A stretch of 64,000 nucleotides of DNA, from assembly GCA_964617815.1 (NCBI GenBank), contig CAZTXY010000003.1, positions 473-64,472 on the forward strand, read 5' to 3'. Below, one piece after another: positions 1,812-61,126 of the stretch. Source of the stretch: an uncultured Candidatus Saccharibacteria bacterium. Its GTDB lineage: Bacteria > Patescibacteriota > Doudnabacteria > UBA920. Position numbers and translations under genes: made by a program. The stretch's first letter is position 1, and each line of letters begins with the position of its first letter. The notes below the pieces were generated by a model. It ran no database searches and was not told where the DNA came from. It saw only the letters and a program-made list of their open reading frames with translations.

Positions 1812-1850
1812 ACCCTGCACTTTCGAAAGAAAATGTAGGGTGTTTTGGTT
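1812..1850 (+). terminator. Candidate intrinsic terminator after the phosphohexomutase gene
   Basis: Imperfect hairpin acaccctgca...tgtagggtgt followed by tttt. Confidence 0.35.
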
Positions 1851-1865
1851 CTTGGGCGTCTCGAC

Positions 1866-2330
1866 TTACGCTGTGACGTTCTTGTTGTCCTCCTTGGTCC
1901 TGCAGGTTGTGCACTCGACGACGAGTTCTCGTGAGTTTTGTTTCATGCCTTGATGGTGGAACTGAATCCCACACTTATGGCAGAATCGGGAGTCTAGCCG
2001 AGGCATGTTTCCTTTGTCGCTGCAGTCATCGCAGCGTGTTCGCGCGCACACCATTTTGGTGTTGCAGACATTGTGGGTCGAGAGGTGGTCGTAGTTGTAA
2101 GACTTTCCGCACTGAGTGCAGAAGCGGTTCCGCGCGAATAATTCGCGCAGTTTTTGCTGGTGCTCTCTGCGTCTATTCGCCTTGTTTTCTGCCACCTTGA
2201 TCTTGTAGGGGGTGTCCAAGAGATCTCCGCGATCTGTGGTGCTCTCTGCTTTGCGGATCGGTTTAAGAGTTGCTGTTTCCCTGTCAGTGTCAGGATGAAA
2301 GCGTCCCCACGTTGGGTTGTTTTTGCTCAT
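1866..2330 (-). CDS. Cys/His-rich zinc-finger protein, possibly an HNH-like nuclease domain
   Basis: A strong SD (aaggagg, 5 nt, ATG) precedes MSKNNPTWG, so the start is placed at 2330 rather than at the ORF-track start. The protein has CxxC...DH...H...N...CxxC...CxxC...HH spacing. The segment is GC-rich, unlike its neighbours. Confidence 0.4.
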   Translation of the reverse strand: MSKNNPTWGRFHPDTDRETATLKPIRKAESTTDRGDLLDTPYKIKVAENKANRRREHQQKLRELFARNRFCTQCGKSYNYDHLSTHNVCNTKMVCARTRCDDCSDKGNMPRLDSRFCHKCGIQFHHQGMKQNSRELVVECTTCRTKEDNKNVTA

Positions 2331-2407
2331 CTCGTCCTCCTTATGTGAAACTATCACACAAATTATATAAAATGTCAATATCCGCTACGTTGTAATAGTA
2401 AATTAAT

Positions 2408-2436
2408 AATCGACCTAAATAGGTCGATTTTTTTTC
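2408..2436. terminator. Hairpin followed by a T-run (aatcgacctaaataggtcgatt ttttttt), possibly bidirectional
   Basis: Perfect 8-bp stem with a 7-T tract. It lies between two minus-strand genes. Confidence 0.45.
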
Positions 2437-2497
2437 GGATAGTATGCAATAAATTGAATATAAAAAAAGTGAAAAAGGGGAGCCGGATGGCGCCCCT

Positions 2498-2797
2498 TTA
2501 TTCTCTTCGTCTGAAAAAGATGCGGACAACCCAGCCGAACTTGTGGCTAGTTGCTAGTCCACCCAACTCCACGGGCTGGTACTTCCGGTATTCATATGAA
2601 GACCCAGCCTCAATTTGAATTGACCGACTGAGTGGAATTTGGACAGTGCTCTGTGCCCGAAAAATGTTGGGGCGCTCGATGGTGACGGCGTTGCTAAAAG
2701 TTGACTGCGTTTGCAGTCGCACTTTTTGTGGGGTTGGTTGTTGGGCTAGAGTGGCTGTTGGCCAGAGTATCAGGAGCATTAGCCCGATCTTTTTCAC
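2498..2797 (-). CDS. Small secreted protein (signal peptide), hypothetical
   Basis: N-terminus MKKIGLMLLILWPTATLAQQ looks like a Sec signal peptide. Confidence 0.4.
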   Translation of the reverse strand: MKKIGLMLLILWPTATLAQQPTPQKVRLQTQSTFSNAVTIERPNIFRAQSTVQIPLSRSIQIEAGSSYEYRKYQPVELGGLATSHKFGWVVRIFFRRRE

Positions 2798-2878
2798 AGT
2801 GTTCCTCCTGTTCTGAGTTTGAGACGTAGAGACAGTTTACGCTTTGTATCGGATTTGGTCAATGTCCATCAATCAGGG

Positions 2879-2971
2879 CACTGTCATTCTGAGCCCTTCG
2901 ATGCCCACAGGGTAAACTCCGCGAAGGCTGCCTACCTGAAGAGATTCCTCGACAGGCTCGGAATGACAGTG
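2879..2971. repeat. MITE/REP-like palindromic element, copy R1 (TIRs cactgtcattctgagc / gctcggaatgacagtg)
   Basis: 16-bp terminal inverted repeats are read directly from the sequence. Copies of the same family are at 7076, 14046, 37812, 48957, 55497 and 63055. Confidence 0.75.
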
Positions 2972-3023
2972 GGTAAAATATTGCAGAACGATAGTCACAA
3001 AAACAGTCAAACAAAAAATCGGT

Positions 3024-4004: not shown

Positions 4005-4040
4005 AGTGTGTATAGTATAGCAAATTTTATCTGAATGAGT

Positions 4041-4074
4041 CTAAAAAAGAAGGAGGGCGGCCTTGGGGCCGCCC
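4041..4074 (-). terminator. Intrinsic terminator for the minus-strand GC-rich cassette
   Basis: Stem gggcggcc ttgg ggccgccc, followed on the minus strand by tccttctttttt. Confidence 0.6.
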
Positions 4075-4119
4075 TTGAGGTGGGGATTGCCGTAGCCTTT
4101 TGAGCTAGGGGCTGACGGG

Positions 4120-4425
4120 TTATGAGCTTGCCGTCGGGTTCATCCCACGGTTGTCTACTACTCTGAAAGCCGGACACTCTTGGGCGGTGATCTCCAGACG
4201 GAAACGTCCTTGAGGTGCCCAGATGCTATCTCCAGCTTGGCTGGCGATGTCCATGCGTTCCTGATAGAACTCCTTTTGGGCGGCTTCGATCATGCGGAGT
4301 AAGTCTTGTTCGGAGTTGGCCTTGATGAGTCTGTGGATCAAGATCTGATCATGAGACTCTTCGGTGTCACTCTTTCCGAAAAGGTGAACTGTGATATGCA
4401 GTTCATGTGTGAACAGTTCGGTCAT
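4120..4425 (-). CDS. Hypothetical protein (GC-rich cassette, gene 3 of 3)
   Basis: SD ggagg plus ATG at 4425 (MTELFTHELH...). The composition is higher in GC than the backbone. Confidence 0.45.
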   Translation of the reverse strand: MTELFTHELHITVHLFGKSDTEESHDQILIHRLIKANSEQDLLRMIEAAQKEFYQERMDIASQAGDSIWAPQGRFRLEITAQECPAFRVVDNRGMNPTASS

Positions 4426-4444
4426 CTGTGTCCTCCGTTGGTTG

Positions 4445-4633
4445 TTAGTCGAGAATCCAGACTTCAGCAACGAGCAAGCCGCCACTGATCATCAGTGTCC
4501 ACCACAGCGTATCTTTGTCGACATGGGTGAGCAGTTCGACAATGACAACTGCGGTAGCACAGACTACTGTGATTGCGATCACAGCATTTTTCCCGAACGA
4601 CTGTGGCTCTTGGCCGGTTACCTTATTTGCCAT
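4445..4633 (-). CDS. Small membrane protein, 62 aa (GC-rich cassette, gene 2)
   Basis: SD aggagg, 6 nt, then ATG (MANKVTGQEP...). One or two hydrophobic helices. Confidence 0.4.
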   Translation of the reverse strand: MANKVTGQEPQSFGKNAVIAITVVCATAVVIVELLTHVDKDTLWWTLMISGGLLVAEVWILD

Positions 4634-4655
4634 CACTGGCCTCCTTGCTATTGAA

Positions 4656-4892
4656 CTACTCGGATGGAAGGTGTTTGATAGTGCATTCGAACACAACACC
4701 AAATCCTTCAAATTCCTCTGGGTAGAGGAGTCGCGGGTTAATGCTATCTACCATAGCGTAAATTCTTTGGCTGCGAAGCGAAACTCTCGCTTGAGTGATG
4801 CCAAAGACTTTCTCGTACTGTTCCAGGAACCGAAGTTTCAGTGCCTCGCAAGTTTTGCAAAAGGCTTCTTCGTTCACGGTGGTGTCCTCCAT
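4656..4892 (-). CDS. Hypothetical protein (GC-rich cassette, gene 1)
   Basis: ORF MEDTTVNEEAFCKTCEALK..., co-oriented with and tightly spaced to the next two genes. Confidence 0.4.
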   Translation of the reverse strand: MEDTTVNEEAFCKTCEALKLRFLEQYEKVFGITQARVSLRSQRIYAMVDSINPRLLYPEEFEGFGVVFECTIKHLPSE

Positions 4893-4919
4893 TTGGACCA
4901 GACTAGTTAATTAGTATAA

Positions 4920-4952
4920 CAAAAACCCTCCCTAATACAAGGGAGGGTTTTG
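4920..4952. terminator. Bidirectional intrinsic terminator (aaaaa ccctccc taatacaa gggaggg ttttg)
   Basis: 7-bp GC stem with an A-run on one side and a T-run on the other. It lies downstream of rnj (minus) and of the GC cassette. Confidence 0.6.
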
Positions 4953-5031: not shown

Positions 5032-5053
5032 TCTAGTCACTAGTGGCTAGTTG
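5032..5053. repeat. TAGT-heptad array (tctagtcac tagtggc tagttg)
   Basis: 7-bp periodic TAGTNNC units immediately 3' of the rnj stop codon. Same family as the arrays at 13253, 49231, 50325 and 51098. Confidence 0.5.
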
Positions 5054-7118: not shown

Positions 7119-7475
7119 TAGCGGGTTTAGTTTATTTGAGAATTTTAGATAAGAAGTAAAAAGTACGAAAGGAAAAAATGAAACAACAACAATGTAAACC
7201 TAAATATTATGATCGTTTTTTATTGCTTTAACCTTTTTTCGCTTTGCACTTTCTGCTTTTTGCTATCTTTTTATTTCGAGGCAAAATTTAAAGATAATCG
7301 TATTATACAAGAACAGTGGGATTATGTCAAACCCTTTTAGCTATATTTGGCTTATTTAAGGTACTAAATCCTAAGATTCCCTTAGGAAGGGAGTCTTTAA
7401 AGGGGAGTCTTGAGGTAAGATTAGGGCCCGATTCGCATTGTAGCGAACCGGGCCCTGAGTTGTGGCCATCAGGCT

Positions 7476-8117
7476 TTAGGCCTGATGAGCCATTCGGTCC
7501 AAGAACTCGCGACCCTTGCCGACGTCGATGTTGATAGGCACGCCACTTGCGCAGAGCGGGCAGTCCGCCTCATCCCAAGCTTCGAGGATGACGTCGAGCA
7601 GTGACGAAAGCCTGGGCACGTCTCCTAACTGCTCTGCAGTCACACCACCTCGGTTGCAGATAGCTCCGAGCCCGATGACCTTGCCACCAATTGCCCTTGT
7701 GGCTTTCACAACCTTGTGTGCCGTTCCGCCGGTGGTCAGAACGTCTTCGACCACGAGGACGTTCTTGTCGGCGACGAGCTTGTCGTAGCCACGCTTGATC
7801 ACGAAGTTGCCTTCGTAATTTTCGGCGTAGACCGCCAGCACTTCTTTCCCTGTGATCTCGCTGAGATGCATGGCCGTCCATTGCGACAGAATGACTCCGC
7901 CGATAGCTGGCCCGATGACCACCTCGACGTGATTGTAGAGGAACTCAGTTGCGATCTTCCGGCAGATCTTCGAAACTTCAAAGATGTGCGGATACACGGC
8001 GTCCTTGTTGACATAGGCATTGCCGTGCTTTCCGCTGGTGTAGACGACGTGGGTGTTTGTGATGACAGCCGAAACCTTTCCGAGGATTTCCAACACGAAC
8101 TCTTCGTTGCTTTTCAT
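7476..8117 (-). CDS. pyrE: Orotate phosphoribosyltransferase-like type I PRTase
   Basis: PRPP-binding motif VLVVEDVLTTGGT. Length 213 aa equals OPRTase. Adjacent to pyrF. GC-rich. Confidence 0.6.
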   Translation of the reverse strand: MKSNEEFVLEILGKVSAVITNTHVVYTSGKHGNAYVNKDAVYPHIFEVSKICRKIATEFLYNHVEVVIGPAIGGVILSQWTAMHLSEITGKEVLAVYAENYEGNFVIKRGYDKLVADKNVLVVEDVLTTGGTAHKVVKATRAIGGKVIGLGAICNRGGVTAEQLGDVPRLSSLLDVILEAWDEADCPLCASGVPINIDVGKGREFLDRMAHQA

Positions 8118-8129
8118 CCGATGATCTCC

Positions 8130-9044
8130 TTATCTGCAGAGGTTGATCTGGTCGCGAAGCTTCATGGTTTCGCGACGTGCCGCTCTAGCGTAGTCATCTT
8201 CCTTGGAAGCGAAGATGATCTTACTGGAGCTGTTGATAATCATGCCGTAGCCGTGGCTGTCAGCTGTGGCCATAACCGTTGCTTCAACATCTCCGCCTTG
8301 GGTACCAATACCCGGCAAGAGAAAGGCCATGTCGCCGACGATCTCACGAACTTCCTTGGCTTGGAGCGGGTAGGTCGCACCAACGACGAGAAGGCAGTTG
8401 CCGTTGGTGTTCCAGTCCCGAGCGACGTTGAACGCGACCCGCTGGTAGAGAGGCATCGAATCCTCACAAAGAAGATTCAGCCAGGTTTTGGCTTTCATGC
8501 CTTTGGGCTTTTCTCGCGGATCGAGCGTCAGCGTGTGCAGATCCTGAAATTCACCTGCGCCTTTGTTGGTTGTCCGGCAAAGCACGATGATGCCCTTGTC
8601 CTTTTGGTCCAAGAACGGTTGCATCGCCTCTTTGCCGAGGTAGGGGTGAACGGTGATGGCGTCAGCTCGGAGCCAGCCAAAACTGGCAGTGACGTAGCAG
8701 TTATTGGTATTGCCGATGTCGGCGCGCTTGGCGTCGAGGATCACCGGCACATGCGGTGCGAAGCGGTTAATGTCGGCAATGGTTCGCCATAGTGCGCTCA
8801 TGCCTTCGTTGCCACTCTCTTCGTAAAACGCCGAATTGAGCTTGTAGGCACAGACGATGTCCTGCGTCGCTTCCACGATTTCGCGGTTGAACGCGACCAT
8901 CGTGTTGGCGATGCCGACTGTACATTCGTGTCCCGGCCTGTAGGCAGACTCCGGAATCTTTCCGAATTCGCTGTCCAGACCCACGCAGACGAAGTTACCA
9001 ACGCTCCACCGCTCTTCGAGCAGTCGCTGGAAATTTCTTCTCAT
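8130..9044 (-). CDS. pyrF: Orotidine-5'-phosphate decarboxylase, type 2
   Basis: Motifs VCVGLD and ILDAKRADIGNT (type-2 ODCase DxKRGDIxxT). The start is moved to MRRNFQ, which has SD aaggagg 7 nt upstream. Confidence 0.7.
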   Translation of the reverse strand: MRRNFQRLLEERWSVGNFVCVGLDSEFGKIPESAYRPGHECTVGIANTMVAFNREIVEATQDIVCAYKLNSAFYEESGNEGMSALWRTIADINRFAPHVPVILDAKRADIGNTNNCYVTASFGWLRADAITVHPYLGKEAMQPFLDQKDKGIIVLCRTTNKGAGEFQDLHTLTLDPREKPKGMKAKTWLNLLCEDSMPLYQRVAFNVARDWNTNGNCLLVVGATYPLQAKEVREIVGDMAFLLPGIGTQGGDVEATVMATADSHGYGMIINSSSKIIFASKEDDYARAARRETMKLRDQINLCR

Positions 9045-9083
9045 GGTTTTGCCTCCTTCTAGGCTGTCAAACAACTTTAAAAC

Positions 9084-9106
9084 CCGCTACTTAGCGGGAT
9101 TGAGTC
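9084..9106 (-). terminator. Intrinsic terminator (cccgcta agta gcggg then ttttaaagtt on the minus strand)
   Basis: It lies downstream of the minus-strand purM-like gene. Confidence 0.5.
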
Positions 9107-9216
9107 TGGTCGTAGTTTAGTAGAAATATAGAAAAAATGCAATAGTAAAATATTTGTAAAAAAAATTGGTGGGCCTGCTGTCTTGCGACAGCAGGCCCAA
9201 GCCTAGTGACACTTGG

Positions 9217-10386
9217 TCACCGGATGTTAAGTGACTCTCCCTTAAACTCGAGATACTTCGGGAGGATGACCACTCTCTTGTCAACGCTCCTTTTGATGTA
9301 TCCAGCCTTGATTGCATCAAAGTTGTAGTCCTGGGCGATCATCATGGCCTTGCTTACATCTGCCTTCGATATGTAGATAGCAAAGCCTGCGCCCATGTTC
9401 AGATTGCCGAAGGCTTCCTCATCGCTGATTGGGCCATGCTTTTGAAGGAACGCGAAGATTGGTTGTTCTTTCGGAAGCTCCTCGATGATGTACCGAAAGT
9501 TACGGTTCGCGCGCATCAGCTTGCGCCACCCGTGGCCGGTGATGTTCACTGCGTAGTGAATATCAACGCCCCACTTCTGGCATTCCTCCATGAACTTCTG
9601 GTAGATGCAGGTTGGAGTCAGAAGCGTTTCGCCGTAGGTACGACCGTCTGAAAGTTCGGTGAGGTAGCCCTTGGGCAAAGCATGCAGGGGGAAGGACTGC
9701 GGCAGGATGAGGTTACTGAATTTACGCCAAAAGCCATCCTTTCTGTCGCCGATTGATCTTGCCAAGGTCAGGCCGTTGGCGTGAATGCCAGAACTCCCTA
9801 GGAGAATTATGACATCACCATGCTGGATTTTATTTTCCGTGATCAGCCGACTCTTTGGTTCAATGATCCCGGTAGCTGAGCCAGAGATGACTGATTTTCC
9901 GGGGATGATAATGTCTTTGAGAGTCGGCGTTTCGCCGCCACCCCAGACACACCCACTGAGCATGCAGGCTTTTTTCCATCCATTGATGAGATCTATACTT
10001 CGCTGTTGGTTGCCGAACCAGCTTGATTCGCCGACGGCCAAGTGCATCATTACAGACACTGGCATTGCACCGAGCGTGATGATGTCGTTGATGATCATCG
10101 CCATAGTGCATTGCGCGACTTGGTCGTAGTACGACTTGCCGGTCAAAGCGCTCATCTGGTCTGCGACGATGTTCTTGGTACCGAGGCCCTCTTCGACGTG
10201 AGCTAGGATTACCTGCGGCATTTCGACGAGATAGGCGCTTTCGCCACGGCTCATCGAGATTTCATAAAAGCCGAAGCGCTCGATGTTCGGAGCTGTTTCC
10301 AAGCCAGCGGCCAATGCTTGCCGTTTGAACGGATCCATGGCGCCGTAGTCAACGCCCGTGCTAGCGTATGTCATGTTCTCTGTCAT
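9217..10386 (-). CDS. AIR synthase-related protein (PurM-like; probably phosphoribosylformylglycinamidine cyclo-ligase)
   Basis: The N-terminal GVDY...VILAHVEEGLGTK resembles the PurM VLxSGTDGVGTK ATP-binding loop. 389 aa. GC-rich. Confidence 0.55.
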   Translation of the reverse strand: MTENMTYASTGVDYGAMDPFKRQALAAGLETAPNIERFGFYEISMSRGESAYLVEMPQVILAHVEEGLGTKNIVADQMSALTGKSYYDQVAQCTMAMIINDIITLGAMPVSVMMHLAVGESSWFGNQQRSIDLINGWKKACMLSGCVWGGGETPTLKDIIIPGKSVISGSATGIIEPKSRLITENKIQHGDVIILLGSSGIHANGLTLARSIGDRKDGFWRKFSNLILPQSFPLHALPKGYLTELSDGRTYGETLLTPTCIYQKFMEECQKWGVDIHYAVNITGHGWRKLMRANRNFRYIIEELPKEQPIFAFLQKHGPISDEEAFGNLNMGAGFAIYISKADVSKAMMIAQDYNFDAIKAGYIKRSVDKRVVILPKYLEFKGESLNIR

Positions 10387-10423
10387 TGTCTTTCCTCCTG
10401 CGGACAGATGGGTCAGTATCCAA

Positions 10424-11050: not shown

Positions 11051-11137
11051 TGGTGGCCGGAGAGGGAGTTGAACCCTCATGACCTTGCGATCGCTGGCAC
11101 CTGAAGCCAGTGCGTCTGCCAGTTCCGCCATCCGGCC
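11051..11137 (-). tRNA. tRNA-Leu (anticodon CAG), type II with long variable arm, CCA encoded
   Basis: Hand-folded. Acceptor ggccgga/tccggcc; anticodon stem ctggc/gccag with loop ttCAGgt; variable arm gatcgcaaggtcat; T-arm gaggg ttcaact ccctc; 3' end cca. Confidence 0.8.
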
Positions 11138-13213: not shown

Positions 13214-13252
13214 TATACTAATTTTATAGTGGTCGTGTCAATAACGACTAGA

Positions 13253-13290
13253 AACTAGTTACTAGTATCTAGTCACTAGTAGAGGCAAGG
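13253..13290. repeat. TAGT-heptad array (aaC TAGTTAC TAGTATC TAGTCAC TAGTAGA) in the divergent secG / RNHCP intergenic region
   Basis: Four or five 7-bp units built on the ACTAGT palindrome. Confidence 0.55.
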
Positions 13291-15485: not shown

Positions 15486-15581
15486 ATATAGTAGTATAGC
15501 CTACAGAAGTTTTTGGCTAAAGGCTGGACAAGGTAGTATACTTGTGTTAGATTGTTTGATCGCCTAAGGAGGGGCGCTTCA

Positions 15582-15821
15582 ATGATTTCTCTGGTCCTGC
15601 TGTCAGGTCTCGACGATGAGATCTTCGCAATTCTGTGGTCGTTGGCCGTGTGGGTCTGCGACTACGTTCTGCCAGCCCTGGCGTTGGTCTACATTTTGTA
15701 CTGTGGGTATCTCGTGGAGCTACCTCAGTACATCTGGGCAAAGATCCGACGAGTCCTCGAGATTGGCTTAAGCCTGTTGGTCGGTCTCGTGGGCTTCGTT
15801 CGAAACATGCCGCATGGGTAA
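15582..15821 (+). CDS. Small membrane protein, 79 aa (GC-rich cassette)
   Basis: SD aaggagg, 9 nt, then ATG. Two hydrophobic helices. A possible 31-aa hydrophobic micro-ORF follows at 15827..15922. Confidence 0.4.
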   Translation: MISLVLLSGLDDEIFAILWSLAVWVCDYVLPALALVYILYCGYLVELPQYIWAKIRRVLEIGLSLLVGLVGFVRNMPHG

Positions 15822-16078
15822 CGACGATGTTTCGACGACTTGTCATAATCTGGATTACCTACGCCCTCGTCATGCTGGTCATTTTCCTGCCCTTGTGGTG
15901 GGAGAGCCGGCGTCACCGCTAGAAGAAGTCATTTTCCGGAAGGTCTTGGTTGTAGCCCTCTGCTACATCCAAGACCTTTTCGCTTTATTGACTTGCGATG
16001 AAAACTTGGAGCATAATAGGGTACCTTCAGGCTGAGGCTTTGAAGAAGTCACAAAAAAAGTTAAAGGAGGCGCTGGCT

Positions 16079-16846
16079 ATGACAAACCAGTGGGATGGAA
16101 AATCGGAAGTCTTTGGCAATTCTAAGCTGGCGTCATTTGATGATCGCCTCGCAAAGAATATTGCTGAATTATGGGAGAGTCTGCGTGGTCCTCTGGCAGA
16201 TCCGGAGAACAGGCGTTCGTTTAACGAGTTGGTTTCAGACTTTGCCCGTGCAAGACATCTTGGCGGGACGACTCTGCTCGTAGAGTTTTTTCAGTTTTTG
16301 CAGGGTTTGGAAGCAGAGATGGAAAGAGTCATTGTTAGGCAAGCTCGATTTTTGGAGGAGAATCAAATTTGGTTGGATTTAGTCTTGGCCGACTATATTC
16401 AAGCTTTGTTTACAGGAAATGAGGACGAAGGCGTCAAGCAACTTGAGGTGCAAGAGGGTTGCTTGGTTCGTTTGGTTGCTAGTTTCATTGAGATTCAAGT
16501 GGCCGACCATTTTGATCCTGTGTTTACTCAGCAGCTGGATGAAACTTTTGTCTTAAAGCTTTCAGTCTTGCTAGACCAAGTTATTGGCCAGGCTTTTGTC
16601 GAGGAAAGAGACAGGCCAGTAAATGTAGTAAAGCTAAGATCTCTAGGACAAGGCGGAATTACAGAGCCAATCGAGTCGTTGTTGTTTGACTACTTGCGAT
16701 CTGTTTGGACGCTGTATCAGCTCACAGACAATGTTCAGGGTTCCCCTGGAATGCGCTACTATAGACAGACCAAGATGGTTGAAGAAGCGCTGGATCGAGT
16801 GGTTTGTCGTTGCAGGTTTCTTGTGAGTCAATCAGAGTTTTCTTAG
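16079..16846 (+). CDS. Hypothetical protein, 255 aa (GC-rich cassette)
   Basis: SD aaaggagg, 8 nt, then ATG (MTNQWDGKSE...). Followed by a terminator hairpin at 16876. Confidence 0.45.
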   Translation: MTNQWDGKSEVFGNSKLASFDDRLAKNIAELWESLRGPLADPENRRSFNELVSDFARARHLGGTTLLVEFFQFLQGLEAEMERVIVRQARFLEENQIWLDLVLADYIQALFTGNEDEGVKQLEVQEGCLVRLVASFIEIQVADHFDPVFTQQLDETFVLKLSVLLDQVIGQAFVEERDRPVNVVKLRSLGQGGITEPIESLLFDYLRSVWTLYQLTDNVQGSPGMRYYRQTKMVEEALDRVVCRCRFLVSQSEFS

Positions 16847-16875
16847 GATTGCTCTGGTTTCCACAGATCGAATTG

Positions 16876-16913
16876 TGTCGCGCCCCATTTATGGAGCGCG
16901 ACATTTCTTTTCT
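16876..16913 (+). terminator. Intrinsic terminator (tgtcgcgc...gcgcgaca then tttcttttct)
   Basis: 8-bp GC stem followed by a T-rich tract. Confidence 0.6.
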
Positions 16914-20109: not shown

Positions 20110-20179
20110 TTTAAGTTGCATTGACCGGCCAAGTTTTTTAAACTTGGTATTCTGATGTTTCGAATTTGGAGGATTACAC

Positions 20180-20533
20180 ATGTCGAGCGATGACAAAGGC
20201 AAAACGCTTTGGGCCGACTGCGAAAAGAAGGGTCAAGACCTCACTCCGTGCTTCGAGAAGAACAAGGATCTGATCGAGGGGCTTGGTAGCAAGCAGGAAG
20301 TGCCTGCTGGCAAGCCCACTCAGCCACTGGTCCCCACCATCGAGCAGGCCGAACTCGAAAGCACAGAGAAGCCCGATTTCGGTCTGGTGATTATCCAGGG
20401 TTCTTACGGAACCGCTGGGGAGGGAATGGACTCTTTCTTCGAAGAACTGACGACGCCGTGGGTCAATGAGACTCAGCCGCTCAGGCCCATCATCGAGGGG
20501 GCTCTGGCGGCCGACGCAGACGACGACGAATAG
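20180..20533 (+). CDS. Acidic hypothetical protein, 117 aa
   Basis: SD ggagg, 7 nt, then ATG. High-GC codon usage. Terminator hairpin at 20542-20590. Confidence 0.5.
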   Translation: MSSDDKGKTLWADCEKKGQDLTPCFEKNKDLIEGLGSKQEVPAGKPTQPLVPTIEQAELESTEKPDFGLVIIQGSYGTAGEGMDSFFEELTTPWVNETQPLRPIIEGALAADADDDE

Positions 20534-20541
20534 AGATGTGA

Positions 20542-20590
20542 AGCGCGAGTGGAGAGCTGCAGAAATGCAGTCTCTCCACTCGCGCTCTTT
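20542..20590 (+). terminator. Intrinsic terminator (agcgcgagtggagag...ctctccactcgcgct then cttt)
   Basis: 15-bp inverted repeat. Confidence 0.55.
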
Positions 20591-20673
20591 AATTAGTTTA
20601 AAATTGACTTATCGGTCTTAGAAGATTATGGTTGAGTTGAGGGGTTGAATTTTTTGATGAAGGGGGAAGGACA

Positions 20674-21039
20674 ATGAGCACAATATTGCTTGTTGACGGT
20701 GACTACATTCAGCGGCCAGTTTTGGCACGCATGCTCAGTGATGAAGGACGCCAAGTCATCGAGGTGAAAAATGCCGAGGAGGCATTGCAGACACTCCAAG
20801 AGGTTTCTGTGGACTTGGTGATCACAGCCATCAGCCTGTCTCCTCGCATGAACGGCGATCCGTTTTCGGCCGAGCTTCGTGCGGCGGGGCACAAGATGCC
20901 TGTGATCTTGATGAAGAACTACCCCGGCGACGTTGTGGATGAGTCCGCCTATTCTGCGGTACTTCTCAAGCCGCTAGTCTTCGTTCGCATTCACATGGCC
21001 GTCGAGCGGGTGCTGTCTCAGTTCGCAGAAGCGGGCTGA
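20674..21039 (+). CDS. Degenerate stand-alone receiver (REC) domain protein (pseudo-receiver)
   Basis: A clear paralog of the canonical REC protein at 24624. It reads LLVDGD instead of DDD and DLVITA instead of DLVLSD, so the phospho-acceptor Asp is Ala. The conserved Lys (LLKP) is retained. Confidence 0.6.
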   Translation: MSTILLVDGDYIQRPVLARMLSDEGRQVIEVKNAEEALQTLQEVSVDLVITAISLSPRMNGDPFSAELRAAGHKMPVILMKNYPGDVVDESAYSAVLLKPLVFVRIHMAVERVLSQFAEAG

Positions 21040-49230: not shown

Positions 49231-49268
49231 GCTAGTTCCTAGTAACTAGTATCTAGTGACTAGTCTTA
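49231..49268. repeat. TAGT-heptad array filling the whole spacer between the TlpA-like stop and the XRE start (gcTAGTTCC TAGTAAC TAGTATC TAGTGAC TAGTCTT)
   Basis: Five 7-bp units. Confidence 0.6.
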
Positions 49269-50324: not shown

Positions 50325-50367
50325 TTTAGTGACTAGCCACTAGTAACTAGCTTCTAGTGTTACTGCA
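50325..50367. repeat. TAGT-heptad array (TAGTGAC TAGCCAC TAGTAAC TAGCTTC TAGTGTT)
   Basis: Five units between the ccdA stop and the TlpA-like start. Confidence 0.6.
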
Positions 50368-50376: not shown

Positions 50377-51090
50377 TTATTTTAATAACTTTTGTTCTAG
50401 TGTGCCAAAGTTATAGTACTCCAAGATTTTAGCTTGAAGGACTAAGTCATACTGGAAATACATAGCGACGGCAAGTCCAATAATCAACACTCCGAAAACT
50501 TGTTGCATTCTTGTTGCGTATTGGGCAAAGCTGCGAACCTTTGTTGTTACTAACTGTCCGCCGTAGGCAATAATTAACATGGGAATTCCAGCACCAACCG
50601 CGTAGGCGACAAGCAAAATAGAAGCGCGACCTACTTCAGTGGAAGTGGCAATTAGAGTCAGAATAGAGCCAAGAACTGGGCCAGCGCATGGTGTCCAGAT
50701 TACACCGAGCATTACACCAAGGACAAAGCCGCCAAAATTGCCCGTGCCAGCTGCAGTAGCTGTTTGGTTAGCTTTGTTGATAAAACCACTTAAGTAAACG
50801 GTCAGTTTTTCAAACGGCGTTGGCCAAATCATAAATAGTCCAAAAATTCCGAGAGCGACAATCGCAATATTGCGCAGAACATCTGGAGCGATGTTTAGGT
50901 TTGTAACTAAATAAGAGAGGAGTAGTCCGGTTAAGGCAAAGGTTAAAACGAACCCTAGGGCAATAAACAAGGGCCTTGTTTTGCTTTGTTGTCCTACTGA
51001 GGCGCCAAGCAAAATAGGGAGTAGGGGTAGAATGCATGGGGCACCAATGGTTAGGATGCCTGCTATAATCGCAAAAAGAATTTGTAGCAT
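50377..51090 (-). CDS. ccdA: Cytochrome c-type biogenesis / thiol-disulfide electron transporter CcdA (DsbD beta-domain family)
   Basis: Six TM helices with the two conserved Cys (GAPCILPLLP and WTPCAGPVLG). Confidence 0.8.
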   Translation of the reverse strand: MLQILFAIIAGILTIGAPCILPLLPILLGASVGQQSKTRPLFIALGFVLTFALTGLLLSYLVTNLNIAPDVLRNIAIVALGIFGLFMIWPTPFEKLTVYLSGFINKANQTATAAGTGNFGGFVLGVMLGVIWTPCAGPVLGSILTLIATSTEVGRASILLVAYAVGAGIPMLIIAYGGQLVTTKVRSFAQYATRMQQVFGVLIIGLAVAMYFQYDLVLQAKILEYYNFGTLEQKLLK

Positions 51091-51097
51091 AATTTAG

Positions 51098-51135
51098 TTT
51101 GCTAGTAACTAGTCACTAGTGGCTGGTCACTAATT
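51098..51135. repeat. TAGT-heptad array (gcTAGTAAC TAGTCAC TAGTGGC TGGTCAC TAATT)
   Basis: Between the thioredoxin stop and the ccdA start. Confidence 0.55.
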
Positions 51136-51673: not shown

Positions 51674-51813
51674 TTGAAATAGTTTAATTTTAATATATTT
51701 CTAGTTTAACATGCTGGGATTATATGTCAAGTGTACTTTACATTGAGATATTAGTAGTACTACTATATACTGATAAACCGGCTTTCAGCCGAGATTTTTC
51801 GAAGGAGTGAACC

Positions 51814-53397
51814 ATGAAAGTCAAACGAGCGCTGATCAGCGTTTCGGACAAGAGGTACATCGACAAACTCGGCTGGGCTCTTACCAAGCTCGGCGTGGAG
51901 ATTATTTCTACGGGTGGAACCGCCAAGGCGCTTTTGCAAGCGGGAGTGCCCATCATTGACGCCAGTGAGTTCACTGGCTGGCCCGAGATGTTCGAAGGTC
52001 GCCTCAAGACCTTGCACCCTCTCATCCACGGGGGAATTCTGTTCCGCCGGGGCAACGAAGAAGACCAGCGCCAGGCCGCCGAACATGGCGTCGTGGGGAT
52101 CGACCTCGTCGTGGTCAATCTTTATCCTTTTGCCGCGACCGTGGCAAAGGAGGGCGTGACCTTCGAAGACGCGGTCGAGAATATCGACATCGGCGGGCCG
52201 ACCATGGTGCGGGCGGCTGGCAAGAACTACGAGGATGTTGCTGTGGTCGTCGATTCCGGCGACTACGAAGCACTCATCGAGGAACTGGAGTTCAGTGGTG
52301 GCAACCTTTCGCTTATGACTCGCTTCAGTCTGATGAGCAAGGCCTTCGCCCATACGGCGGCCTACGACAGCGCGATCGCTGACTTCATTGCCAACCGGGC
52401 GACGTTTAACCCCGGAACCGAGAAGGTCGAGGTGCTTGATGCTGAAGCGATGCCGGCGCGGGTAACGCTGCAGTTGAGGCGCAAGGACACTCTTCGCTAC
52501 GGTGAGAACCCGCATCAGAAGTCTGCGCTGTACACTACGGCGCAGTCTGACGGTGGCGTTGCAGCGGCTGTTCAGATCCAGGGCAAGGGTCTTTCTATGA
52601 CCAACTATCTGGACATGGACGCGGCCTGGAAGATCGTAGGGGAGCTCGCAGGGGAGCTCGTCTCCTTTCAAGTCCCTTGTGCAATCGTCAAGCACGCAAC
52701 CCCGTGCGGCGTTGCCATCGGAGCAACCCAAGTTGATGCCTACATTCGGGCTTTTGCCTGCGATCCAAAGTCGGCTTTCGGCGGCGTCATCGCGTTCGAT
52801 GATGTGGTTGACGGTGATGCGGCCAGAGCAGTTCTGAGCCATTTCGTTGAGGTCGTGATCGCAACTGATTACACCGACGAGGCTCTGGAGGAGTTTCAGC
52901 GAAAGCCCAACGTTCGTGTGATGCGGGCGCCAAACGCGGTAGCTGAACCTTTCGAGCTTCGTAGTATCAGTGGCGGCCTGCTGTTTCAGCAGCCTGACAC
53001 TGACGCCATTCACGCTCTCTCTGTCGTCACGGAGCGTCAACCCACGGAATTCGAGGAGAACGATCTGTGGCTCGCCAACATGTTGGTCAAGTACGTCAAG
53101 AGCAACGGCATTGTCTACGTTCGCGACCAGCAGATGGTGGCGGTGTGTGGTGGACAGACGAGTCGAGTGGATGCGGTGCGCATGGCTGGCGAGAAGGCTG
53201 TGCTTCCGCTTGCTGGTTCTGTGTTGGCCTCAGACGCCTTTTTCCCGTTTCGCGACAATGTCGATGAGGCGGCAAAGGCAGGCGTTACGGCCATCATTCA
53301 GCCGGGAGGATCGAATCGCGATCAGGAGGTCATCGATACAGCCAACGAGAATGACATGGCCATGATCTTCACTGGCACACGCCACTTTCGGCACTGA
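51814..53397 (+). CDS. purH: Bifunctional AICAR transformylase / IMP cyclohydrolase
   Basis: N-terminal MGS-like IMPCH domain (KRALISVSDK...GVEIISTGGTAKAL...LKTLHP) plus the AICARFT domain. 527 aa. SD aaggag. Strongly GC-rich. Confidence 0.88.
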   Translation: MKVKRALISVSDKRYIDKLGWALTKLGVEIISTGGTAKALLQAGVPIIDASEFTGWPEMFEGRLKTLHPLIHGGILFRRGNEEDQRQAAEHGVVGIDLVVVNLYPFAATVAKEGVTFEDAVENIDIGGPTMVRAAGKNYEDVAVVVDSGDYEALIEELEFSGGNLSLMTRFSLMSKAFAHTAAYDSAIADFIANRATFNPGTEKVEVLDAEAMPARVTLQLRRKDTLRYGENPHQKSALYTTAQSDGGVAAAVQIQGKGLSMTNYLDMDAAWKIVGELAGELVSFQVPCAIVKHATPCGVAIGATQVDAYIRAFACDPKSAFGGVIAFDDVVDGDAARAVLSHFVEVVIATDYTDEALEEFQRKPNVRVMRAPNAVAEPFELRSISGGLLFQQPDTDAIHALSVVTERQPTEFEENDLWLANMLVKYVKSNGIVYVRDQQMVAVCGGQTSRVDAVRMAGEKAVLPLAGSVLASDAFFPFRDNVDEAAKAGVTAIIQPGGSNRDQEVIDTANENDMAMIFTGTRHFRH

Positions 53398-53423
53398 GCA
53401 GTTACAAACGGGGGAGAGTTTTT

Positions 53424-53486
53424 GCAGAGCATCTGGCTCTGCGTTTGGGCGGGTCGCTACACCAGCGACCCGCCCTCATCTTTTTT
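53424..53486 (+). terminator. Tandem terminator hairpins after purH (gcagagc atctg gctctgc; gggcgggtcgc tacaccag cgacccgccc then tcatctttttt)
   Basis: Read directly from the sequence. Confidence 0.7.
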
Positions 53487-53522
53487 ATGTTATAATTTAC
53501 TTAATAAAACTAATCTAAAAAA

Positions 53523-57476: not shown

Positions 57477-57482
57477 ATGAAA

Positions 57483-57512
57483 GGGCGACCACGTTGCTGT
57501 ACGTGGCCGCCC
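57483..57512 (+). terminator. GC-rich hairpin immediately after the dnaK stop (gggcgaccacgt tgctgt acgtggccgccc)
   Basis: 12-bp stem with one mismatch. The U-tract is weak. Confidence 0.4.
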
Positions 57513-57858
57513 AGTTAGCTCTTTGAGACCTTGCTTTGAGATCTCATATAGATAAGGATCGCCTCCTTTAGACCGCGTTCGGAGAGATGGTTCGAACGTG
57601 CGCGATACCGACCGTGGTCGCAATCATAAGGTGTCCTCCTGTTTGGAGCCGGCGCAAGGCTCGGCTGAGTGTGGTGGTTGATGCAACGGGGCAATCTTCT
57701 CCCGTGGTCGCATCTGTGGGTCGAGACCGAAGAATCTTCGGCTCAACCGCTTGAATTGCTTCGCAACCGAGGCGTACATAATGGCTTTCACCTCGACTCG
57801 GATTTACTAATTAAAGTATATCATAGTAGTTATTAATTAATAAAAAATCTAAAAATAT

Positions 57859-58179: not shown

Positions 58180-58220
58180 TCAGTAGTCCTAAGTACTAAG
58201 TACTTAGTACTCAGTACTAC
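58180..58220. repeat. AGTACT-heptad array (cctAAGTACT AAGTACT TAGTACT CAGTACT ac) upstream of dnaJ
   Basis: Four 7-bp units built on the AGTACT palindrome. Confidence 0.6.
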
Positions 58221-58225
58221 AAAAT

Positions 58226-59383
58226 ATGGCAAAAGATTTTTATGAAATACTTGGAGTAAACAAGTCTGCTAACGCAGATGAGATTAAACGCGCCTACAGA
58301 AAAAAGGCTCATGAGTATCATCCAGACAAAGGCGTGGGCAATGAAGAAAAGTTTAAAGAAGTTAATGAAGCGTATCAAGTTTTATCGAGCAGTGACAAGC
58401 GCTCACAGTACGATCAGTTTGGCCAGACCTATGAGCAGGCACAGCGAAACGGGGGAGCTGGTCCCGGTGGTTTTGGTGGTAATCCTTTCGGTGAAGGTTA
58501 TGATTTTTCAGGTTTTGGCCAAGGTGGTAATGTAAAATTCGACTTAGGAGATATTTTTGGTGATATTTTTGGGGGTCGGCAAGAACGTCAGAGCCGTCGC
58601 ACTCGTGGTGTAGATTTAGAAATGCCTGTAACAATTAGTTTTCAAGAGGCTGTATTTGGCATAGAAAAAGAATTGCAGTTAGAGAAAAAAGACACTTGTC
58701 CGACTTGCAAAGGAAATGGGGCAGAAGTTGGCACTAAAATAGTGACGTGTTCAAAGTGTCATGGTCAAGGTCAAATTATTACAATGCGCCGCACTATTTT
58801 TGGGCAAATGCAATCTGCAACTACTTGTGATAAGTGTGATGGTGACGGAAAGATTCCAGAAGTCCCCTGTAAGCAATGTAGTGGCGCTGGGATTTTGCGT
58901 CAAAGTAAAACTTTGCAAGTTAAAATTCCCGCGGGGATAGATAATGGCCAACGCATTCGAATTTCCAAAGAAGGGGAGATTGGTTATAAAGGTAGTAACC
59001 CTGGAGATTTGTATTTAAATATAAAAGTAAAACCACATGCCGAATTTAAGCGCTCAGGACAAGACTTACTTAAAGATTTGCCAGTGAGTTTTACCCAAGC
59101 CGCTTTAGGTGCAAAAATTAATTTTTCAACACTTGATGGAGATATTGAGTTAAAAGTTCCCACTGGAACTCAGTCCGGAACTGTTTTAAAAGTTTCTGGA
59201 AAAGGTGCACCTTTTATTAACAGTGGTAAGCGAGGCGATTTGCTAATTACAATTCGGGTTGTAGTCCCTGGAAAGCTGTCGAAAAAAGAAACAGATCTTC
59301 TAAAAGAGCTGGCAAAAGCCAGAGGGGAAACAGTGGAAGTTGATAAAGGATTTTGGGATAGCATTAAAGGAAGTTTTAATTAA
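58226..59383 (+). CDS. dnaJ: Molecular chaperone DnaJ
   Basis: J-domain with HPD (YHPDKG), a G/F-rich region, four CxxCxGxG zinc-finger repeats and the C-terminal domains. Confidence 0.9.
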
Positions 59384-59388
59384 ATCTG

Positions 59389-59423
59389 AAACTGTCCCGA
59401 TGTACATCGGGGCAGTTTTTTTG
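59389..59423 (+). terminator. Intrinsic terminator after dnaJ (ctgtcccgatg tac atcggggcag then ttttttt)
   Basis: 11-bp stem with one mismatch, followed by a 7-T tract. Confidence 0.65.
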
Positions 59424-59509
59424 ACCCAGAAACTGTGGCGTGGTAGAGTAATAAGCTTGAGTCCAACTTTGTTTGGACCTGGCTACCACTAAAAGGAGGC
59501 GTTTACGCC

Positions 59510-61003
59510 ATGAAAAAGTCCTGGGCCATTAGGTTCTGGTTGATTCTTCGCTCGATATGCAATATCTGGCGGGGTCAGGTGATGGTGGTCGTTGGCGCCT
59601 ACTGGGGCGACGAAGGTAAAGGAAAAGTGGTTGATGGAATCGGCCGCTTGTACGATATCATTGTCCGTTTCGGTGGTGGAGCCAATGCAGGCCACACGGT
59701 GTTTACTCCAGACGGGCGCAAGGTTGTGTGCCATCTGATTCCTTGCGGTGTTGCTTGGGGCAAGACCTGTGTGATTGGCCGAGGTGTGCTCTTCTCGTTG
59801 AGTTCATTTCTGAAAGAGTACCTTGAGATCGCAATGGTTCTTGGCGGTGTCATGCCTGTGATTTACATTGACACGGGCTGCACGTTGTTCACTCCGTATC
59901 ATCGGTTGTTCGAATTTTGGGGAGAGACTCTCCGGAATGGCAAAATTGGAACAACTGGTCGCGCGATCGGAGCATTGGCAGCTTTTGACAAACTTCGGTA
60001 TGGGCCAAAGGTTGGAGATCTGTTTTCTCCAGCTAGGCTTGAAGAGAGGGTTACAGAACTCTACTCCTTGCTTTTACCGATTTTTGAAGAAATGTTGGAC
60101 AGAAAGGAGAAGGGCGACGCAGACTTCAAGGATGTAGTCATCCCAACTCCACAGGAGGTGGTCGCACAACTTCTTTTGGAGGCGCAAAATCTTCCGAAGG
60201 ACTGCGTCATCGACACGCGAAGTTTTTTGCTCAAGCAGATTGCTTTGGGCAAAAAGATTCTTCTCGAAGGCGCACAGGCTGCAGGGCTCGACAGCAAGTG
60301 GGGAACTTGGCCTTTTGTTTCAGCTGGCGACTCTGTCGCCGCGGGAGCTTCTTTGGGTACTGGCCTGCCAATGTACTTGATCACTAGGATTATGATGGTT
60401 GGCAAGGCTTTGCCTTCGCGCGTTGGTCGTGGTCCCTTTCCTTCAGAGATGTGGGATAGAGACCTCATTGCTGATTTTGGTGAAGAACACATGTACCTGT
60501 TTTCGCCAGGGAAACGAAGAGACGGTTTCCTCGCTGATCTGCGAGAACAGATAAACATGGGCGGCAACAATGAGGTGCATGCCAAGTATTTTGGAGTGCT
60601 GGGCCTTGAGCTTGGCGCCAGTACCAGTCGTGTTCGGAGCCTTGGCTTCAGCGATTTGCCTTGGTTGCGTTACTCGGCTGAGGTAAATGGCGCCACCGAG
60701 ATGGCTCTGACCCGTCTGGACATGCTGTCTGGAATTGACTCAATTCAGGTCGCGGTCGCTTACAAATACGAGGGGGAGATTTTTCCTCCGGGGCAAATGC
60801 CAGTCTCGGCTTTCGACTTGGATCAGGTCGAGCCGGTTTACGAAGATTGGCCGTGCTGGAAGGAGGATATTTCTGGAGTGAGCAAGTGGCGTGACTTGCC
60901 GCGCGAAGCTAGGGTCTTCATCAAGCGGATGGAAGCTGCGGTCGGCGTGCCCATTACCGTGATTGGGACGGGGCGTGGTCGCGAAGCTCTCATTCGAAGG
61001 TAG
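59510..61003 (+). CDS. purA: Adenylosuccinate synthetase
   Basis: GAYWGDEGKGKVVD (P-loop), GGANAGHTV, GTTGRA, GAQAAGLD and PSRVGRGPFP. Strong SD aaaggagg before the ATG at 59510. An alternative start at MVVVGAYWGDE (59582) would remove an atypical 24-aa N-terminal extension. GC-rich. Confidence 0.8.
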   Translation: MKKSWAIRFWLILRSICNIWRGQVMVVVGAYWGDEGKGKVVDGIGRLYDIIVRFGGGANAGHTVFTPDGRKVVCHLIPCGVAWGKTCVIGRGVLFSLSSFLKEYLEIAMVLGGVMPVIYIDTGCTLFTPYHRLFEFWGETLRNGKIGTTGRAIGALAAFDKLRYGPKVGDLFSPARLEERVTELYSLLLPIFEEMLDRKEKGDADFKDVVIPTPQEVVAQLLLEAQNLPKDCVIDTRSFLLKQIALGKKILLEGAQAAGLDSKWGTWPFVSAGDSVAAGASLGTGLPMYLITRIMMVGKALPSRVGRGPFPSEMWDRDLIADFGEEHMYLFSPGKRRDGFLADLREQINMGGNNEVHAKYFGVLGLELGASTSRVRSLGFSDLPWLRYSAEVNGATEMALTRLDMLSGIDSIQVAVAYKYEGEIFPPGQMPVSAFDLDQVEPVYEDWPCWKEDISGVSKWRDLPREARVFIKRMEAAVGVPITVIGTGRGREALIRR

Positions 61004-61015
61004 GTTGGTTTTCTT

Positions 61016-61068
61016 GGGGTTTCCTGCGTGCAGTCGTGCCCGCAGGAAACCCCTTCTTTCTTTTTAAG
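61016..61068 (+). terminator. Intrinsic terminator after purA (ggggtttcctgcg...cgcaggaaacccc then ttctttcttttt)
   Basis: 13-bp GC stem followed by a T-tract. Confidence 0.7.
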
Positions 61069-61126
61069 TCATAGAATTAAAGTTTTATGGTATAATAGAA
61101 AAAAGAGATAATCTATAGAAACAAAA

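Follow-up and report, generated by a model that had tools for sequence, protein, structure and literature searches.

Shine-Dalgarno-led, GC-rich gene islands with nucleotide-synthesis cargo, probably acquired laterally, in a Doudnabacteria-like genome

Bacteria of the candidate phyla radiation (CPR) are thought to depend on their hosts for nucleotides. How does a contig from such a lineage come to carry seven enzymes of nucleotide synthesis, all of them encoded on GC-rich segments set into an AT-rich backbone? We analysed a stretch of 64,000 nucleotides from an uncultured Candidatus Saccharibacteria assembly that GTDB places in Doudnabacteria (GCA_964617815.1, contig CAZTXY010000003.1, positions 473 to 64,472 of the forward strand). 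This whole stretch is called the window below, and positions are counted from its first letter. An earlier examination of the letters and open reading frames (ORFs), here called the sequence-only reading, had proposed repeated capture of GC-rich islands, with a high-GC host as a speculative donor. We conclude that the islands probably arose by lateral insertion of at least 12 small segments into intergenic spacers of a conserved Doudnabacteria-like backbone. The segments are self-contained transcription units or short operons that are GC-rich, carry a strong Shine-Dalgarno (SD) sequence before 15 of 18 genes and have a hairpin terminator after 10 of the 18.

The window as a whole has a GC content of 43.6%. 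The sequence-only reading had described GC-rich islands in an AT-rich backbone at approximately 1-270, 1850-2380, 4040-4950, 7330-10400, 15550-16910, 20110-25630, 28060-28760, 30450-31270, 51760-53490, 57480-57800 and 59480-61070, and these coordinates are right to within a few tens of bases. All eleven intervals are real (GC 0.519, 0.503, 0.501, 0.530, 0.478, 0.503, 0.502, 0.508, 0.574, 0.555 and 0.525 in that order, or 47.8 to 57.4%), and the eleven intervals between islands lie at 0.387-0.424 (38.7 to 42.4%). Pooled GC is 0.516 for the islands and 0.407 for the backbone, with the islands taking up 26% of the window. Across 500-bp slices, the standard deviation of GC is 0.054, which is 2.4 times the binomial expectation of 0.022. 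The two classes also differ in GC content at third codon positions (GC3) and separate cleanly in tetranucleotide usage. Values of GC3 per gene are bimodal, at 0.45-0.71 in islands and 0.26-0.43 in the backbone, and by tetranucleotide distance all islands longer than 1.2 kb are closer to the island pool and all backbone chunks closer to the backbone pool. By all three measures the segments have the atypical composition of laterally acquired genomic islands.

One island had been overlooked, at 2498-2797. The interval 57480-57800 contains a conserved minus-strand ORF of 50 residues rather than bare spacer. A structured RNA at this position was considered and dropped, as no Rfam match reached the threshold (best E = 2.7) and the conserved small ORF fits better. 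Three further island ORFs, at 4515-4910, 15547-15846 and 25080-25628, are not preceded by an SD and may be doubtful as genes. Among relatives with DnaK about 75-85% identical (loci L003-L047 and L073), locus GC3 ranges from about 0.29 to 0.65, so genomic GC shifts quickly in this family. The island features, including ORFs without recognisable family (ORFans), are as follows.

1-270: GC-rich stretch, GC 0.52, clipped by the window edge
1866-2330, minus strand: ORFan, 154 residues, Cys-rich and zinc-ribbon-like; AGGAGG 5 nt before the ATG, GC3 0.65
2498-2797, minus strand: ORFan, 99 residues, signal-peptide-like N-terminus; AGGAGG site, GC 0.50
4120-4425, minus strand: ORFan, 101 residues; GGAGG site, GC3 0.59; faces the SD-less ORF at 4515-4910
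7476-8117, minus strand: pyrE-like orotate phosphoribosyltransferase; Pfam PF00156, AGGAG site, GC3 0.71
8130-9044, minus strand: pyrF, orotidine monophosphate decarboxylase subfamily 2; AGGAGG site, GC3 0.69
9217-10386, minus strand: divergent purM-like aminoimidazole ribonucleotide synthetase; AGGAGG site, GC3 0.66
16079-16846, plus strand: ORFan, 255 residues (hyp255), in the uvrC/uvrA spacer; AGGAGG site, own hairpin terminator
20180-20533, plus strand: ORFan, 117 residues (hyp117), first gene of the composite island at 20.1-25.6 kb; GGAGG site, GC3 0.70
20674-21039, plus strand: RR1, stand-alone response-regulator receiver; Pfam PF00072, paralogue of RR2 (41% identity)
21199-22347, minus strand: ORFan, 382 residues (hyp382), coiled-coil membrane protein; GGAGG site
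22518-23414, plus strand: pyrD, class-1A-like (soluble, fumarate-type) dihydroorotate dehydrogenase; Pfam PF01180 at 141 bits, AGGAGG site
23411-24448, plus strand: pyrC, homodimeric-type dihydroorotase; TIGR00856 at 349 bits, above the 293-bit cutoff
24624-24974, plus strand: RR2, second stand-alone receiver protein; GGAGG site
28069-28692, plus strand: ORFan, 207 residues (hyp207); AGGAGG site, hairpin terminator
30525-31181, plus strand: ORFan, 218 residues (hyp218); GGAGG site, long hairpin terminator
51814-53397, plus strand: purH (aminoimidazole carboxamide ribonucleotide formyltransferase / inosine monophosphate cyclohydrolase), between Trx and hyp187/hrcA; Pfam 349 bits
57624-57776, minus strand: 50-residue ORF in the GC-rich dnaK/DUF3467 spacer; GAGGTG site, frame kept in locus L256
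59395-59509, plus strand: left end of the purA cassette, with a hairpin and T-run, a promoter-like site TTGACC-N17-TAGAGT and a leader containing AAGGAGGC
59510-61003, plus strand: purA, long-form adenylosuccinate synthetase (497 residues); Pfam 361 bits, GC3 0.56
61020-61075, plus strand: hairpin terminator of purA, GGGGTTTCCTGCG...CGCAGGAAACCCC with a T-run after it, at the right end of the cassette

Comparisons with Pfam, NCBIfam and PDB confirmed the gene calls made from sequence alone for pyrE, pyrF, the purM-like gene, pyrD-pyrC with its ATGA junction (23411-23414), purH and purA. The cargo includes four consecutive pyrimidine steps (steps 3-6; pyrC, pyrD, pyrE and pyrF), all recognisable, whereas carA, carB and pyrB do not occur within the 64 kb. 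Both pyrC and pyrF score above their NCBIfam equivalog cutoffs, pyrF with 211 bits to TIGR02127 (cutoff 110.6 bits) and with a start that agrees with the public gene call. The products of pyrD and pyrE are divergent, since they score above Pfam but below equivalog cutoffs. The best PDB matches of the former are Lactococcus dihydroorotate dehydrogenase A and trypanosomatid fumarate-type enzymes; the latter reaches 111 bits against NCBIfam pyrE_Therm, under the 150-bit cutoff, and is 45% identical to PyrE of the CPR locus L170. Three purine steps are represented by the purM-like gene (TIGR00878 at 169 bits, under the 236-bit cutoff, with top PDB matches that are all PurM), by purH, which forms the most GC-rich island (GC 0.58, GC3 0.68), and by purA. 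The remaining cargo consists of two receiver-domain proteins and about eight ORFans. Promoter-like sites were present at the three islands examined for them (purH, purA and hyp117). GC-rich, SD-bearing single genes also occur in relatives (L018, L027, L030, L020 and others), and these are unrelated to the window ORFans and to each other.

An AGGAGG, GGAGG or AGGAG motif lies 5-10 nt before the ATG of 15 of the 18 island genes, versus one of 37 backbone genes, namely uvrA (Fisher p = 1e-9). A GGAGG-type SD had been claimed for every readable island gene; this holds for the 15 and fails for the other three. All ten SD-supported starts that we looked up were identical to public gene calls. Across 40 related loci, a strong SD precedes only 0-3 of 10-20 genes whatever the GC content, including in relatives with GC3 of about 0.6 (L073, L036, L046 and L088). 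Because the GC-richer relatives are SD-poor as well, strong SDs cannot be put down to GC content, and they mark genes as foreign. Judging from these comparisons, SD-less gene starts are a habit of the lineage, from which the island genes depart. Loss of the anti-SD is reported in part of the Parcubacteria (PMC9297842).

Terminators are less telling. The 70 nt past the stop codon have a median folding energy of -25 kcal/mol for island genes and -15 kcal/mol for backbone genes, and several of the island genes that are not followed by a hairpin and T-run lie inside two-gene operons. The proposal that each island gene has its own stem-loop terminator is therefore mostly true. Such terminators also occur at backbone genes, for example uvrA and dnaJ, so this feature is not specific to islands.

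The backbone is that of a Doudnabacteria-like member of the Patescibacteria (CPR), an episymbiont-type lineage as had been supposed: its DnaK is closest, at 82-85% identity, to Candidatus Doudnabacteria and other Patescibacteria metagenome-assembled genomes. Backbone genes encode a phosphoglucomutase, a class-I tRNA synthetase, RNase J, a NUDIX hydrolase, a peptide-binding protein, UvrC, UvrA, an RTX protein, glycosyltransferases, a DUF11 protein, a sortase, a LOG-like protein, a thioredoxin/DsbD set and hrcA-grpE-dnaK-dnaJ. Relatives share the order uvrC - uvrA - g48576 - g49030 - Trx10 - DsbD - Trx - hrcA - grpE - dnaK - DUF3467 - dnaJ - hyp182, and in relatives with this order the purH, purA and uvrC/uvrA inserts are all absent. 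Three spacers illustrate the difference.

Trx to hrcA: 880 bp in L015, 2513 bp in the window with purH inside
dnaJ to hyp182: 197 bp in L073, 1744 bp in the window with purA inside
uvrC to uvrA: 205 bp in L027, 1640 bp in the window

For these three islands, absence at the same position with flanks retained was thus directly seen in relatives; purH, for instance, is not found at its position in L013, L015, L016, L023 or L025. Since relatives keep the flanking order without the islands, the islands are insertions, which bears out the view of them as additions to a conserved gene order. A larger difference lies between uvrA and g48576. In several relatives uvrA adjoins the g48576 homologue, and in the window 28.5 kb separate them (20001-48576). 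This block includes three GC-rich islands together with AT-rich envelope genes (RTX, glycosyltransferases of up to 1425 residues, DUF11, a 1272-residue protein, sortase and LOG), so the variable content is not all GC-rich.

If the islands were inserted laterally, their donors would be higher-GC, SD-using organisms, at least some of them other Patescibacteria rather than a host from a foreign phylum. The DNA could have arrived by uptake followed by recombination, or by phage, and phages with nucleotide-metabolism modules are a possible vehicle. The purA cassette would already have occupied its present site in the ancestor shared with the more distant relative L086, and later movement between related lineages through border recombination would have preserved its foreign composition. 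The seven enzymes would work together with genes outside the window.

The history of purA is the most informative. Locus L086 (DnaK 86% identical) has islands at the same two sites, with a purH fragment between Trx and hrcA and with purA and IMPDH after dnaJ. GC3 is 0.62-0.70 in these three genes and 0.29-0.45 in the L086 backbone. Homology between the window and L086 extends to the purA promoter and leader, which have GTGGTA-AGT-AAGCTTGAGTCC, AAGGAGGC and GCCATG in common, and their presence at the same site indicates the same ancestral cassette. The left end of the cassette is also homologous in L083. Between the window and L086, synonymous sites are saturated in every gene, and the number of nonsynonymous substitutions per site (dN) is 0.39 for PurA and 0.11-0.45 for the backbone. 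Recent capture thus lacks support on two counts, as no donor exceeds 50-56% identity and the purA cassette is older than the separation of these two synonymously saturated genomes. The acquisitions were probably not all recent. Given this saturation, a single old insertion that then drifted neutrally would by now be expected to have lost the GC3 excess of purA, yet the excess persists. The ratio of nonsynonymous to synonymous substitution rates (dN/dS) of purA is 0.08 relative to L083, which indicates purifying selection and a functional gene.

The leader of purA may be a regulatory leader: a near-identical 25-nt block (GTGGTA-AGT-AAGCTTGAGTCC) is followed by a hairpin at 59440-59509 in the window and 9930-10000 in L086. 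It has no match in Rfam.

Any two of the purA alleles from the window, L083 and L256 share 92% identity, and each of the three has 57 private changes. Their backbones are unequally related to that of the window, at 95.5-98% identity for L083 and 83-91% for L256. Equidistant alleles on unequal backbones show that the cassette has had a history different from that of its flanks. In L258 (ENA ERZ1749613, 1-1900), the L256 purA allele is preceded not by dnaJ but by a PIN-like gene and a 454-residue AT-rich gene, and the homologous stretch starts with the hairpin just 5' of the purA promoter, which is the left border of the cassette. Two readings fit: a second genomic context, or an additional insertion beside the cassette. 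Together, these patterns suggest that the purA cassette was exchanged among related lineages by recombination at its borders, and such exchange could keep purA from settling to the composition of any one host.

A broader version of this idea would be a floating pool of GC-rich, SD-led, hairpin-bounded cassettes, several of them for nucleotide synthesis, that moves among Doudnabacteria-like genomes by border recombination. We offer this as a tentative conjecture that we consider unlikely. If it held, the cassettes would move too often to adopt the composition or the SD-less starts of any host, and they would amount to an accessory genome that initiates translation in its own way within a lineage otherwise without SD use.

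Alternatively, the island genes could be native, having descended vertically while selection or GC-biased gene conversion held their GC-rich codons and SDs, and having been lost from relatives. We consider this unlikely, even though several properties of purA agree with it. PurA and PyrC are of CPR type. The site and leader of purA are shared with L086 despite saturated synonymous sites, and its dN falls inside the backbone range. Recent purA substitutions are nearly stationary, with 82 GC-to-AT and 62 AT-to-GC changes (the dnaJ control could not be reliably polarised), and the gene is under purifying selection. Against native descent stand the tight, intact spacers at island sites in most relatives, and the recurrence of the same signature in eight ORFans, as well as the phylogenetic position of PurA itself.

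In searches of 5.8 billion proteins, about 80 database proteins of 480-500 residues matched the window PurA at 43-54% identity, and those with labels are only Patescibacteria or Doudnabacteria. Ordinary PurA of 430 residues followed at 35-39% identity after a sharp drop in score. With its 497 residues and its greater similarity to labelled Patescibacteria PurA than to ordinary PurA, the window protein belongs to this long-form clade. A scan of metagenome contigs based on universal PurA motifs found one other long-form member, on the short contig L090, and otherwise ordinary PurA. In a neighbour-joining tree, the window and L086 proteins form a pair (61% support) that is basal in the long-form clade and not nested with Doudnabacteria PurA. 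The phylogeny therefore places the gene in a Patescibacteria clade, yet apart from the Doudnabacteria, and the purA genealogy conflicts with that of the backbone; purA is the sole gene for which gene and organism trees were compared. Moreover, native CPR purA genes (L170, L171, L172 and L088) have GC3 like that of their own genome and no SD, in keeping with the general rarity of SDs in the lineage. One of them, L172, is from the same genome as L003 (DnaK 82%), which is among the closest GTDB relatives, and encodes a native-composition, SD-less purA-IMPDH at another locus. This suggests that purA is foreign to the lineage of the window.

The same comparisons qualify the notion that the islands restored nucleotide synthesis to a reduced genome. 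The related Doudnabacteria locus L172 already has a native purA-IMPDH and L170 has the whole pathway, so that the islands may equally well be xenologous additions or replacements. The L170 locus (GCA_964372905.1, CAYJQY010000007.1) is a CPR contig with purH-purF-purN-purD-purE-purM-purC-purB-purA followed by pyrD-pyrF-pyrE-prsA. This almost complete cluster has a uniform GC of about 50% and no gene with an SD.

We next turn to the question of whether the islands came recently from a high-GC host outside the CPR, for example through DNA uptake during episymbiosis. The episymbiont-type backbone makes such capture conceivable, and PurH is the enzyme that fits it best. Its nearest relatives, at 50-56% identity, are on long contigs (up to 3 Mb) that are typical of ordinary bacteria, with 'bacterium HR08' and Blastocatellia among the labels, and the CPR PurH fragments of L086 (48%) and L170 (42%) resemble it less. 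Only PurH looks non-CPR, and at just 56% identity. The other enzymes point elsewhere. PurA falls in the Patescibacteria long-form clade, and the top matches of PyrC, searched among 1.8 billion representatives, are 50-53% identical, with Candidatus Uhrbacteria as the only named one. The Uhrbacteria locus (L173) has 62% GC, AGGAGG before both pyrD and pyrC, and the two genes adjacent as in the window, which demonstrates that high-GC, SD-using Patescibacteria exist. The best non-self identities are 56% for PurH, 54% for PurA and 53% for PyrC, so no sampled host lineage is a recent donor, and the purA cassette is older than a synonymously saturated split. We therefore regard a host as the recent donor as quite unlikely, and that part of the sequence-only reading found no support. 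Its proposal of repeated acquisition from one or more donors fared better, as several events with more than one source would agree with the wide range of GC3 among islands (0.45-0.71) and with enzymes whose affinities are mixed. From these matches, we infer that the sources were mixed, unsampled and at least partly within Patescibacteria.

Could phages have delivered the nucleotide genes, leaving islands as remnants of high-GC phages after infection or lysogeny? The closest PyrC among the 1.8 billion representatives is on L174 (ENA ERZ27315302 k141_15129), a phage-like contig of 64% GC. It encodes a Dda-like helicase, ThyX, a MazG-like pyrophosphatase, a nucleoside deoxyribosyltransferase and pyrD-pyrC with the same 4-nt overlap as in the window, and looks like a phage nucleotide-metabolism module in which pyrimidine de novo genes would be phage auxiliary genes. 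However, its PyrC is just 50-52% identical to that of the window and its PyrD just 26%. IMG/VR contained no long-form PurA and no close PyrC (ordinary PurA at 35% or less, and one giant-virus PyrC at 40%), the island ORFans match no PHROG and, joined as one query, no phage record, and no integrase or structural phage genes were found in the window. Delivery as phage auxiliary genes is thus very unlikely.

An assembly or binning chimera, in which GC-rich fragments of another organism were joined into an AT-rich contig, could produce such alternating composition and might explain why a purH contig stops near the island borders, but is scarcely credible given that island borders lie in spacers with promoters and terminators intact, that purH and purA islands stand at the same sites in L086, and that the purA junctions recur elsewhere. 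Both purA junctions are present at 100% identity in L002, a Logan contig from a different run, and dnaJ-purA-hyp182 recurs in assemblies of other samples from JGI, Logan and ENA (L083-85, L256-257), with identities of 88-98%. With the junctions recovered in five independent assemblies and in a syntenic relative, misassembly, a concern raised at the outset, is excluded for purA. The purH contig is L001 (Logan, SRR8893625; window 51748-53455), both ends of which are within about 65 bp of the island borders. These ends could reflect graph branching from strain variants with and without the island.

Lateral insertion therefore remains the reading that we favour, and several points weigh against it. 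Among 5.8 billion proteins, and outside the population cluster of the window itself, the relatives of the island enzymes all stay at or below 56% identity, and no high-identity donor lineage was found. Taxon labels were sparse, with four named PurA matches and one named PyrC match. The PurA tree is a neighbour-joining tree with just 61% support for the pairing of window and L086, and the exclusion of chimeras covers the purA junctions only, at the level of assemblies. The synteny comparison covers three islands and the 20-48.5 kb block. None of the island ORFans has a credible match in Pfam, NCBIfam, PHROGs or PADLOC, and the eight ORFans joined as one query had no match in phage records. Maintained composition accounts as well as repeated exchange does for a purA that is GC-rich in two synonymously saturated lineages and for the near balance of its recent substitutions. 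Finally, profile searches of the window proteins detected no integrase or transposase domains in or beside the islands, and neither flanking direct repeats nor a shared border motif were found at island borders, so the mechanism of insertion is inferred.

How do these islands compare with known systems? Genomic islands have been described in groundwater Patescibacteria (PMC12455944, mSystems 2025), where most detected transfers came from other Patescibacteria and were not recent, and where as much as 13% of a genome's length was ascribed to transfer. As in that study, reduced CPR genomes carry laterally acquired segments that add metabolic functions, and its non-recent transfers between Patescibacteria match the CPR affinity of PurA and PyrC and the best identities of 50-56% found here. 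The window differs in being 26% island over 64 kb, in its mostly one-gene units and coherent nucleotide-synthesis cargo, and in its contrast of SD-led and SD-less genes, of which the passages of that study drawn on here make no mention. A cytochrome bo3 (cyo) operon is reported to have been acquired laterally by soil Doudnabacteria, Saccharibacteria and Parcubacteria (PMC8407418, mSystems 2021). Here too a Doudnabacteria recipient made a metabolic gain in a genome otherwise without nucleotide and lipid synthesis. Unlike the window with its many scattered cassettes, at least two of which have Patescibacteria affinities, cyo is one operon and is attributed to Proteobacteria or Chlamydiae.

Like classical genomic islands and islets, the window segments have atypical GC and oligonucleotide usage, are absent from relatives and encode accessory functions. 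Unlike them, they have no integrase, flanking direct repeats or tRNA insertion. The only RNA gene in the window, tRNA-Leu(CAG) at 11051-11137, is not at an island junction; it lies 650 bp from the nearest island (pyrE-pyrF-purM), with the AT-rich NUDIX gene between. The window units are also small, at 0.3-5.5 kb, and come equipped with a promoter, an SD and a terminator of their own, although not every gene has all of these. With integron cassettes they share a small, mostly single-gene format, frequent absence of function by homology and a 3' inverted-repeat structure. They differ in being dispersed, in the absence of intI and of a common attC-like motif, and in having their own promoter-like sites (at purH, purA and hyp117). 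Integron-like and transposon-like mechanisms were dropped, since there are no shared border repeats or motifs and no integrase. Phage auxiliary modules resemble the islands in the 4-nt pyrD-pyrC overlap, which on L174 occurs near the ThyX, MazG-like and deoxyribosyltransferase genes, and differ from them in the low PyrC and PyrD identities noted above and in the absence of phage genes beside the window islands.

The window thus adds a dense, unusually legible case to the lateral gene islands already known from Patescibacteria. It goes beyond earlier reports in three respects: its contrast in SD use, the coherence of its nucleotide cargo and the evidence from purA for continuing exchange. In this window, four consecutive pyrimidine steps and three purine steps are entirely on acquired cassettes, which bears on how reduced genomes patch their metabolism. 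Other Patescibacteria, and not the host, are indicated as the main gene source, in agreement with the community-level survey (PMC12455944). The contrast between SD-led and SD-less genes offers a cheap, composition-independent marker of foreign genes in such lineages, and it raises the question of how one ribosome serves both kinds of messenger. With its persistent foreign composition and conflicting genealogy, purA is a tractable case for studying how acquired genes resist drift to host composition.

Some minor observations concern the islands and their relatives. Partners of at least 90% identity for pyrC, pyrE, pyrF, RR1 and hyp255 occur in other JGI, ENA or Logan samples, and the purM-like gene, hyp117, hyp382, hyp207 and hyp218 are cluster singletons. 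These differences may reflect differing age or spread. In two CPR genomes, a low-GC IS200-like Y1 transposase lies between purA and IMPDH (L088, 11402-12025; L171, 11502-12125).

Other observations concern the backbone. A TATACT box ends 6-9 nt before the ATG at TrpRS (4004), uvrC (15485) and sortase (47100), which hints at leaderless messengers for a few backbone genes. As a -10-like box lies 4-14 nt before the start codon of only 6 of the 37 backbone genes, we do not claim leaderless initiation. Tandem heptamers, (CTAGTNA)n and (AGTACTN)n, occur in backbone spacers at 5033-5051, 13234-13280, 49232-49264, 50326-50358, 51088-51134, 58184-58214, 61679-61709 and 62074-62104, and none occurs at an island border. 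The arrays lie just 5' of several backbone genes (hyp65, Trx10, DsbD, dnaJ and IVP) and may act as operators or terminators. The DUF11 surface-protein gene contains a 12-nt tandem repeat at 40463-40542 that codes for a Gly-Tyr run.

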